Of a stretch of DNA of 36,209 bases, positions 26,350 through 27,924 are shown piece after piece. The DNA is taken from assembly GCA_043823315.1 (NCBI GenBank), contig JBDRAU010000027.1, positions 1-36,209 on the forward strand. The letters run 5' to 3'. Origin of the DNA: a bacterium. GTDB lineage: Bacteria; Patescibacteriota; UBA1384; DTJR01. The notes under the pieces are model-generated. The model made no database searches. It saw nothing but the letters and a program-made list of their open reading frames with translations, and was not told the origin of the DNA. The translations under genes were made by a program, and so were the position numbers. Positions within the stretch are counted from its first letter, which is position 1, and each line of letters opens with the position of its first letter.

Positions 26350-27924
26350 ATGAAGATATACAACACCCTCTCTCGAACCAAGGAAGAAATTACTCCGATC
26401 TCTGGCGATGTTATTAGGATCTATTCTTGCGGTTTGACGGTTTATGACTATGCCCATATAGGGAACTTACGAAAATACATTTTCGACGACGTGCTAAAAA
26501 GAACGCTTGAATATTTTGACTATAAGGTTAAGCATATTCAGAACGTTACTGACGTTGGGCATTTAACTTCCGACGAGGATGAGGGCGAGGATAAAATTGA
26601 AAAAAGTGCCACAAGGGAGGGTAAAACTGCTTTTGAAATTGCTAAATTTTATGAGAAAGCTTTCGTTGAAGATTTAAAAAAGTTGAATATAGAATTACCG
26701 GACGAAATGCCAAAAGCAACCGAAAATATTCAAGAACAAATAGAATTAGTCAAAAAATTAGAAGAAAAAGGTTTTACATATAAAACGTCGGATGGAATTT
26801 ATTTTAATACATCTAAACTAAAAGATTATGGTAAGCTAGCCAGACTTGATATCGAGAACTTAAAAGAGGGGAGTCGGGTAGAGAAAAATCTCGAAAAGAA
26901 GAATCCAACCGACTTTGCACTCTGGAAATTGAGCCCTGATGGCGAGCGAATGGGGACTGTCCCCTCGCCGGGGACTGTCCCCGAAGCTCCGAGCGGTTCA
27001 AAACAGTTTACTTCGAGCGGAGCGAGAAGACAGATGGAGTGGCCTTCACCTTGGGGTGTGGGCTTTCCGGGCTGGCACCTCGAATGCTCTGCGATGGCGA
27101 CAAAATTTCTAGGTCAGCCGTTTGAAATTCACACCGGAGGCGTTGATCACATTGCAGTTCACCACACTAACGAAATAGCCCAAAGCGAAGCTGCTTGCGA
27201 TAAACCCTTGGCAAAATATTGGGTTCATAGCGAGCATCTTTTAGAGGACGGCCGAAAAATGGCGAAGTCGGATGGGCATTTTATTCGTCTTCAAGACTTG
27301 GAGGAAAAAGGTTACTCACCGCTTGATTATCGTTATTTATGTTTGACGGCTAGTTATCGTAGTAAGCTTGATTTTTCGTGGAAATCGTTTGATGCGGCTC
27401 GCTCCGCTCGCCGTAAAATAAATGACGCTTATAACCTAGTCTGTCATCCTGAATCTCCCCCGCGTCATCCCGAGCTTGTCGAGGGATCTGTCGCGAATGC
27501 GACATCTAACCCCTCTGTCATCCCGAGCGACGCGCAGGGGACTGTCCCCATGGGGTCTGTCCCCGAAGCGGAGTCGAGGGATCTATCATCCTTCAACAAA
27601 GCCCTCGCCGATGATCTTGATACTCCTCGAGCTCTTGCTTTCATTTTCAAAAATCTCTCTAGATTAAGCTCTGCTGAATTTGAAAAAATAGACGAAATTT
27701 TTGCAATCCTTGAAAAAATTGAGACTAAAAAAGAAGACGGAATTATTATTGAAGGTTATGCACCGCGGGAAGTTATCAAATTAGCTCTGGAGCGCCAAAA
27801 AGCTCGCGAGCAAAAGAATTTCAAAAAATCCGATGAGCTGCGTGACAAAATCTCAAAACTTGGTTTTAACATTGAAGACACCCAAGACGGACCGAAGATC
27901 TCCTCTATGTCATCCCGACCGTAG
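26350..27924 (+). CDS. cysS: Cysteinyl-tRNA synthetase carrying two in-frame insertions and a C-terminal tail derived from GC-rich repeat units
   Basis: HIGH region (YAHIGNLR), [16 protein letters not shown], and a KMSKS-like KMAKSDG. Extra segments at about 26947-27033 and 27442-27591 consist of the hairpin repeat families found in the intergenic clusters. Confidence 0.9.
   Translation: [524 protein letters not shown]

Follow-up and report, generated by a model that had tools for sequence, protein, structure and literature searches.

Selfish repeats that reside in frame within protein-coding genes are already known, the closest described case being the Rickettsia palindromic elements (RPEs), which are inserted in frame in many genes (Ogata et al. 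2000, as summarised in PMC10969869). Here, we describe much shorter repeats in cysS, the gene for cysteine–tRNA ligase (CysRS; 26350–27924, + strand), of an uncultured, ultra-small Patescibacteria (Candidate Phyla Radiation, CPR) bacterium, on a 36,209-nt stretch of contig JBDRAU010000027.1 (assembly GCA_043823315.1; 40% GC) that was analysed as a whole and is called the window throughout. This cysS carries three in-frame repeat-derived pieces, at two loop positions (sites 1 and 2) and at its 3′ end, and the same repeat families (hairpin elements that we call A units, and GGGGAC.GTCCCC palindromes) also occur outside genes, in the window genome and in others. Relative to the systems already described, what is new is that the units are only 25–35 nt long, together with their nesting, strand bias and breadth of occurrence, and with a hotspot for them in cysS. 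We consider it likely that these small hairpin elements are spread at the DNA level, that tolerant loops are the only places where they persist, and that they undergo translation in the manner of RPEs.

The resemblance to RPEs extends to dispersed palindromic repeats lying in frame in unrelated, often housekeeping, genes, to extra translated peptides at fold-compatible positions and to a small, reduced, AT-rich genome (PMC10969869). However, RPEs are ~100–150 bp long, restricted to Rickettsia and characterized by a conserved peptide per family (PMC10969869), whereas the cysS units are 13–35 nt, nested, combined into composite inserts and found in Patescibacteria. Unlike in RPEs, one exact unit of the cysS type is common to several phyla and to phage contigs, and throughout an entire radiation one gene is repeatedly struck in two of its loops. 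The cysS elements work like RPEs in their in-frame residence and are not members of an RPE family, from which length and host separate them.

The A unit itself (~25–35 nt) combines a constant (T)GTCAT head with a variable stem-loop and an ATC[TC] tail; the stem starts at the AT of the head, and the loop is often CTTG(N), GAA or GAAA. Stems covary between copies (CCCGCA/TGCGGG, CCTGAA/TTCAGG, TCCGGA/TCCGGA, CCCCGT/ACGGGG and GCCTGC/GCAGGC), and head and tail remain constant. This architecture is shared with repetitive extragenic palindromes (REPs) and their hairpin-forming doublets (REPINs), which likewise are 20–40-nt imperfect palindromes in which the head is constant and the stem varies, arranged in arrays and predicted to form single-stranded hairpins (Bertels and Rainey 2011, PMC3116915). 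REPs are extragenic by definition, though, whereas the present units lie in frame in cysS, in a phage portal gene and in a 4Fe–4S gene; the head is GTCAT here and GTAG in REPs, and a unit occurs in very distant genomes where REP families are species-specific (PMC3116915). The elements thus have the short imperfect palindrome, the conserved head and the many dispersed copies of a REP/REPIN and depart from its extragenic location. Inverted doublets with a spacer, as in REPINs, are formed by the units in a Sphingobium plasmid and by the forward-plus-reverse cysS inserts of three orthologous loci (L102, L103 and L072), whereas the window copies are single-orientation. REPs and REPINs are mobilised by RAYT transposases (Y1/HUH), of which none was recognized among the 20 window open reading frames (ORFs) scanned against Pfam.

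Very small repeats have been seen in cyanobacteria as well, where the small dispersed repeats (SDRs) that Elhai and colleagues reportedly presented in Genome Research in 2008 are said to be 21–27 nt long, apparently mobile and inserted into one another. We know of no enzyme assigned to SDRs, and to our knowledge they have not been described as residing systematically in frame in a conserved enzyme. The present elements are like SDRs in being very small, nested and apparently mobile, and unlike them in sequence and lineage. Coxiella QMITE1 and intragenic enterobacterial repetitive intergenic consensus (ERIC) sequences offer another parallel, being non-autonomous repeats that can make in-frame fusions with host ORFs (PMC5896051; PMC10969869). 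Those miniature inverted-repeat transposable elements measure 100 bp or more and have terminal inverted repeats, frequently together with target-site duplications (PMC5896051; PMC10969869), and no such duplication was seen at the loci studied here. Within the collection covered by a full-text literature search, we found no published description of the present elements.

Functionally, the window cysS encodes a 524-residue protein in a single open frame, with a match to Pfam tRNA-synt_1e, its best named relatives in Candidatus Berkelbacteria and its closest solved structure in Borrelia CysRS (3sp1; E = 8e-100, PDB sequence search). A first-pass annotation of the window, made from the sequence alone, had described an open cysS frame with intact catalytic motifs and three repeat-derived segments; the frame is open and the motifs are intact (HIGN at 36, KMAKS at 303, C27, GWHLEC at 241–246 and HHTNE at 271–275), and every sequence feature that it named was found in place. 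HIGN, KMAKS and the zinc/cysteine-pocket residues (C27, C246, H271 and E275) are invariant in an alignment of 22 orthologues. Judged by HIGH and KMSKS, by the zinc/cysteine-binding residues (E. coli C28, C209, H234 and E238) and by overall fold, the protein belongs with the class I aminoacyl-tRNA synthetase CysRS, on motifs, PDB match and Foldseek fold alike.

Insert 1 (26947–27033, + strand; 29 codons, residues 200–228) appears as a gap in the HMMER alignment to E. coli CysRS (1li5/1u0b) between E191 and P192, and at the equivalent point in 8qhp. The insert contains the palindrome dimer GGGGACTGTCCCC then GAAGC (26952–26987, + strand; copies at 26952–26964 and 26970–26982), with GGCGAG (26941), CTCGCC (26964), GTCCCCGAAGC (26977) and a CGAGCGG direct repeat (26990 and 27014). 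Three exact copies and one one-mismatch copy of GGGGACTGTCCCC are present in the window, against none in dinucleotide-preserving shuffles and none expected. As RNA, insert 1 folds better than shuffled sequence (z = −2.8). Its size, put at about 29 extra codons in the first-pass annotation, holds against E. coli but shrinks to 21 codons against the nearest relative, from which ~63 nt are absent and with which the FTSSGAR part is shared. The accompanying statement that the inserts are built from the intergenic repeats of the window is matched by blastn evidence for insert 2, with the qualification that insert 1 has no significant match to intergenic DNA of the window and within the window matches only the palindromes inside insert 2. 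The insert 1 palindrome is confined to cysS in the window, yet it is intergenic in another CPR contig (L095), and a very similar palindrome dimer occupies cysS site 1 of a 58%-identical orthologue (L091) in another reading frame (GDCPLEGDCP).

Insert 2 (27442–27591, + strand; ~50 codons, residues 365–414) is a chain of repeat units between helix 344–365 and helix 413–420, with blastn matches to intergenic units of the window at E = 7e-5, 1e-3 and 4e-3. All on the + strand, the chain comprises a truncated A-type unit TGTCATCCTGAATCTCCCC (27442–27460; beginning TGTCATCCTGAA, read as CHPESP) whose opening 14 nt recur unchanged in the intergenic unit at 28902, an A-type unit CGTCATCCCGAGCTTGTCGAGGGATCT (27463–27489; read as RHPELVEGS) that shares 24 of 26 nt with the intergenic unit at 22016, a small hairpin GTCGCGAATGCGACATCT (27490–27507; GTCGC-GAAT-GCGAC then ATCT), and an outer A-type unit CCCCTCTGTCATCCCGAGCG...GGAGTCGAGGGATCT (27510–27584). 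Nested in the loop of this outer unit are two GGGGAC/GTCCCC palindromes, GGGGACTGTCCCC (27537–27549) and GGGGTCTGTCCCC (27552–27564), and its 5′ leader AACCCCTCTGTCATCC is identical to intergenic 28896–28911. The 13-mer CGAGCTTGTCGAG, reported earlier from one position inside cysS and three intergenic ones, is indeed exact at all four (27471, and 22023, 28003 and 29125), with no match in 100 dinucleotide-preserving shuffles. Site 2 is naturally variable in length, and the ~50 extra codons first ascribed to it do consist of repeat units but amount to an excess of only about 31–41 codons over insert-free orthologues. At the 3′ end, an A-type unit with leader CCTCTATGTCATCCCGACCGTAGTGGAGGGATCT (27902–27935, + strand) replaces the native C-terminus and gives SSMSSRP and the stop TAG (27922–27924); within it, TGTCATCCCGACCGTAGTGGAGGGATCT (27908–27935) encodes the last five residues, MSSRP, and the stop codon, just as first described. 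Folding of insert 2 (z = −1.1) and of the C-terminal unit did not differ significantly from shuffles, and we therefore claim no conserved mRNA structure for the inserts.

Of all single results, the strongest is that of a sister genome (L001/L086), whose neighbouring genes are 88–98% identical in protein sequence to those of the window. Its cysS lacks 21 codons of insert 1, and at site 2 it holds other content inside the same TGTCAT...GGGATCT borders, 62 nt of which are 93.5% identical to intergenic 28269–28330 of the window (E = 1e-21), so that one and the same element is coding in the sister genome and intergenic in the window. The sister protein ends in ...IFHK followed by TAA, with an A-type unit beginning ~15 nt downstream of that stop. 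Between closer strains, the repeat content is also variable: L003 (NCBI metagenome-assembled genome, MAG) and L004 (ENA) have identical cysS genes and, outside arrays, only scattered single-base differences over ~20 kb, and their repeat array at 28722–29010, upstream of a gene for an RRM protein, is almost completely different in content, with the window agreeing with L004 and not with L003. The same two strains differ by a 19-nt indel near 30409.

Structurally, the AlphaFold2 model of the window CysRS (mean pLDDT 71.7, pTM 0.72) has a core that superposes on 1u0b, 1li5 and 3tqo with target-normalised TM-scores of 0.74–0.81 (Foldseek). The pLDDT falls below 50 at residues 197–240, 371–409 and 522–524, which are the three repeat-derived segments, and Ser, Pro, Gly and Val predominate among the insert residues. 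Site 1 lies just before the WxSPWG...GWHxEC segment, and insert 2 sits in the loop after the helix ending near E. coli residue 318; in the domain names of the E. coli structure, we take site 1 to be the end of the connective peptide (CP) domain and site 2 the linker after the stem-contact (SC) fold. Solved CysRS structures have short loops at both positions, the outcome that the alignment and structure mapping suggested in the first-pass annotation was meant to look for. Its central proposal, that repeats invaded a housekeeping gene and were tolerated as surface loops, is supported by the sister-genome polymorphism, the 62-nt intergenic match, the short loops and the low pLDDT.

Across orthologues, cysS is a hotspot for these repeats throughout the CPR, in the same two loops. 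A scan of species-representative genomes gave one close relative only, and a metagenome scan gave more. With DFxLWK and WxSPWG as anchors, the length of site 1 is 11 residues in 97 of 137 resolved orthologous loci (bacteria and archaea) and 37 in the window gene. Of the 115 closest database CysRS proteins, which are all CPR-like, 64 have a site 1 longer than 13 residues. Enlarged loci with a taxonomic label are all CPR, a few others being unlabelled or auto-labelled; in labelled DPANN archaea, Elusimicrobia, Ignavibacteria, Chloroflexi and Desulfobacterales, the loop has 11 residues (13 in one Ignavibacteria gene). Over ~160 loci, site-1 inserts comprise forward A-type units in three frames (...GGHPELVSGS..., ...SVIASEAKQS... 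and ...SLRADAKQS...), reverse A-type units (...GRSFDSAQDD... and ...GMTK...), palindrome dimers and other GC hairpins (...SSPPYQGGE...), and four loci (L007, L087, L088 and L095) have units at both sites. Among loci with at least one closed A unit, the density of closed A units is 0.77/kb in cysS, 0.57/kb in non-ORF DNA and 0.04/kb in other long ORFs, where the three matches all lie at ORF edges; since the loci were chosen through cysS, the size of this contrast is approximate, but it is still large. Homologous segments in orthologues from unrelated bacteria had been named beforehand as a finding that would speak against insertion. CPR orthologues are indeed filled at the same positions, but with several repeat families, in either orientation and in varying frames, and this diversity points to repeated colonisation or turnover of sites 1 and 2 rather than to an ancestral protein feature.

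Besides CPR genomes, the exact 25-mer GTCATCCTGAACTYGTTTCAGGATC is found in phage or virus-like contigs (32 IMG/VR contigs of 28–71% GC), and it is 100% identical in plasmids of Sphingobium, Novosphingobium and Sphingomonas. In-frame copies among the IMG/VR contigs fall in a Mu-type phage portal protein and in a pilin leader peptide. Three related phage contigs among the 32 (L178, L180 and L187) each carry 8–15 closed A-type units in ~13 kb, nearly all on one strand, opposite to terL, and each encodes a 486-aa large terminase; among 10 ORFs of these three unit-rich contigs no transposase was recognized, the only matches being to terminase, Fic and QueC. Phages may carry or exploit these hairpin elements. 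On a Sulfurovum mangrovi plasmid (NZ_CP087125.1; L199 891–2030), an annotated 4Fe–4S dicluster protein of this cultured bacterium has RHSGLDLES and EILNQVQDD in a linker, the latter encoded in frame under a 96.8% match to the 25-mer in reverse orientation, and the former resembling a forward A-type unit as judged from the peptide only. A search of the protein database with the concatenated recurrent peptides returned 30 candidates, with one match at E = 1.2.

In the window, 14 of 14 A units and 8 of 8 units of a second family (B) occupy the + strand, those to either side of the minus-strand RRM gene among them, and across 26 loci 73 of 86 closed units lie on the majority strand, a value reached by none of 20,000 random orientations. 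For IS200/IS605-type elements, whose strand-specific copies follow replication in their orientation and whose hairpins are recognised as single-stranded DNA, the observations to set beside them are this strong same-strand bias within loci and a GC skew that is positive over the whole window. Nested units lie at 27510–27584, 28157–28240 and 28245–28330. The units may spread via a strand-specific, single-stranded-DNA hairpin intermediate like those of REP/REPIN or IS200/IS605 elements, and new units may often land inside older ones. With such nesting, a single old colonisation of a loop could seed later turnover and leave persistent hotspots at cysS sites 1 and 2. Very probably, selection keeps only copies that are of multiple-of-three length, stop-free and in tolerant loops, which accounts for the few reading frames in which each unit is seen and hence for the recurrence of the same peptides (HPELVSGS, VIPS/VIAS, SLRA... 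and, reversed, ...FDSAQDD).

Several observations weigh against this account of mobile, tolerated and translated repeats. A Pfam scan of 20 window ORFs recognized no transposase, and a comparison of filled with empty junctions, which are blurred by nesting and codon drift, showed no target-site duplications, so that mobility is deduced only from polymorphism and dispersal. Translation, too, is deduced from sequence. Low pLDDT is not specific to the inserts, since it also occurs at residues 71–80, 170–176 and 295–310, and a significant RNA fold relative to shuffled sequence is confined to insert 1. The concentration of units in cysS relative to other ORFs exceeds what random insertion and selection would lead one to expect. 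Moreover, a large fraction of CPR CysRS have an insert of the GRSFDSAQDD type, degenerate versions included, and this prevalence could reflect old vertical inheritance or even a useful loop.

Whether the inserts are real and reach the protein at all is where the alternatives are weakest. Metagenomic data and a repeat-rich region are the setting in which an assembly chimera or mis-joined repeat-rich reads might be suspected, and read-level chimerism had been listed as a check at the outset; it is not borne out, as the 1575-nt cysS is nucleotide-identical in contigs from an NCBI MAG, from an ENA assembly and, for another run, from a Logan assembly, and dozens of independent orthologues show the same phenomenon, so that we regard an artefact as exceedingly improbable. 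Another alternative is removal of the inserts before or during decoding, either at the RNA level, which the first-pass annotation had floated as the more interesting option, or by ribosomal bypass, which has a precedent in phage T4 gene 60. GC-rich, hairpin-forming inserts in an AT-rich genome, and the significant fold of insert 1, speak for such a mechanism, and the mitochondrial blocks of Magnusiomyces are also GC-rich and hairpin-forming. Those short nucleotide blocks, like mitochondrial GC clusters, are mobile blocks in protein-coding genes of an AT-rich genome; they disrupt reading frames (12 of 15 genes), which are corrected in translation as the ribosome skips them (PMC5009743), whereas every cysS insert keeps the frame. 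One continuous ORF runs through cysS in 146 of 160 loci, the other 14 being either cut by contig ends (8) or archaeal with anchors unresolved or an upstream part below the length threshold (6). Without a frame-breaking case, the 32 distinct enlarged site-1 loops all stay in frame and stop-free, and every complete gene among the ~160 loci likewise keeps one open frame through its inserts; excised or bypassed inserts would be expected out of frame two thirds of the time, and the lack of any frame-broken gene makes excision or bypass very unlikely. The use of units only in stop-free frames is, besides, a signature of selection on translation. Neither an intron nor any other known RNA family in Rfam matched the inserts, and membership among introns or bypass elements was rejected on that result and on the constant frame. 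Inteins were set aside by inspection (no intein profile was scanned), the inserts being 29–50-residue low-complexity segments without intein blocks. We infer, strongly, that the inserts are translated into Pro/Ser/Gly-rich segments without confidently predicted structure and that the enzyme is not destroyed.

What maintains and moves the repeats leaves more room for alternatives. An enlarged CP-domain loop and post-SC-fold linker might be adaptive for CPR CysRS, the repeats serving as raw material only, and this would fit the enlarged site 1 in 64 of the 115 closest orthologues, the 23-residue loop common to 19 (mostly of the ...GRSFDSAQDD... type, including diverged versions) and the far more frequent occupation of cysS than of neighbouring ORFs. 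Yet content, length (13–56 residues), orientation and frame vary widely among close relatives, many CPR genes and all labelled non-CPR orthologues manage with the 11-residue loop (13 residues in the one gene noted above), the sister genome does without most of insert 1, and few stop-free unit frames suffice to account for the recurring peptides. Adaptation, for instance for partner binding, tRNA handling or a moonlighting role, is improbable to us. A similarly slim chance attaches to segments that arise and change without transposition, whether through gene conversion or recombination involving dispersed copies or through replication slippage that hairpins template at a fragile site. The missing transposase and target-site duplications, the shared outer borders but different interiors of site 2 in window and sister, the whole array swapped between near-identical strains and the CGAGCGG direct repeat inside insert 1 all suit it; the first arrival of units in a coding loop, the same 25-mer in genomes of 28–71% GC, phage contigs and sphingomonad plasmids, and the strong strand bias are left unaccounted for, and recombination and transposition are not mutually exclusive. 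It is possible, though we would not expect it, that the A-type unit (GTCAT, stem-loop, ATC) represents an undescribed class of ultra-small, phage-carried mobile hairpin elements across many bacterial groups. Should it be so, the elements might, with a comparably tentative standing, home into earlier copies or a specific DNA target, which would make the CysRS CP-domain loop a radiation-wide hotspot.

[quoted passage not shown] Being several times smaller than RPEs, they indicate that even very short hairpin repeats can lengthen loops of a conserved, presumably essential enzyme. Length variation in CPR aminoacyl-tRNA synthetases, and probably in other proteins, can consequently stem from repeats rather than function, and many short ‘hypothetical proteins’ in such genomes may be translated repeat arrays. 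Additionally, strand bias, nesting, cross-phylum identity and density in phage contigs offer a route to the mobilising machinery, and the cysS hotspot provides a natural series of filled and empty sites for insertion studies.

Outside cysS, the window has three intergenic repeat arrays on the + strand. The array at 27936–28397 contains the same repeat families and includes 28269–28330; that at 28668–29316 has A units at 28882, 28905 and 28993 and B units at 29148, 29198 and 29252; and that at 21546–22081 has A units at 21935 and 22016 and B units at 21796 and 21849. The B family counts eight units, all intergenic and on the + strand (the five just listed and those at 28026, 28055 and 28110), each composed of GGAG(C/T)(C/T) then a hairpin with covarying stems (CAAGCT/AGCTTG, CAGGTT/AACCTG and CAAACT/AGTTTG). 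A third family consists of GC palindromes, CCTGCCTGCCGGCAGGCAGG and variants (21754–21802, 22993–23034, 25911–25966 and 29059–29112). In the sister genome, a third-family palindrome is also nested in an A-type unit downstream of cysS. No Rfam family covering the units emerged with either gathering thresholds or permissive E-values, which gave only tRNAs and chance-level matches. A naive scan for GTCAT with a perfect stem of at least 6 bp did no better than shuffled sequence (54 vs 45; 35 vs 24), only its GC-rich-stem subset being informative.

Elsewhere in the window, the glycosyltransferase ORFs (1814–4164, − strand) and a UDP-glucose dehydrogenase ORF (7404–8198, + strand) look split or truncated: a 158-aa GT1 fragment adjoins a 597-aa ORF with a GT1 domain then a second GT4-type N-terminal domain, and the 264-aa dehydrogenase ORF has no C-terminal-domain match in Pfam. 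A 397-nt segment of 60% GC (30539–30935) lies inside an ORF (30489–31349, + strand) without a Pfam match, a gene called as 137 aa in one assembly and 278 aa in the other. At 29317–29619 (+ strand), a 100-aa ORF contains three 21-nt tandem repeats encoding (G/S)LKTD(I/V)(F/S) heptads, with a weak coiled-coil-like Pfam match. Finally, a ~105-nt structured element occurs in three copies (12841–12945, 13544–13647 and 14211–14315, + strand) ~40 nt 3′ of the genes for tRNA Thr-UGU, Thr-GGU and Trp-CCA, and each copy ends in a copy of the last 20–25 nt of its tRNA, including CCA. ARAGORN does not call the element and no Rfam family matches it. RNAalifold on the three copies gives 34 pairs, 13 of them with compensatory changes, in which the 5′ part pairs with the tRNA-derived 3′ part, and the element may represent either a minihelix RNA resembling a tRNA or a scar left by a tRNA-targeting element.

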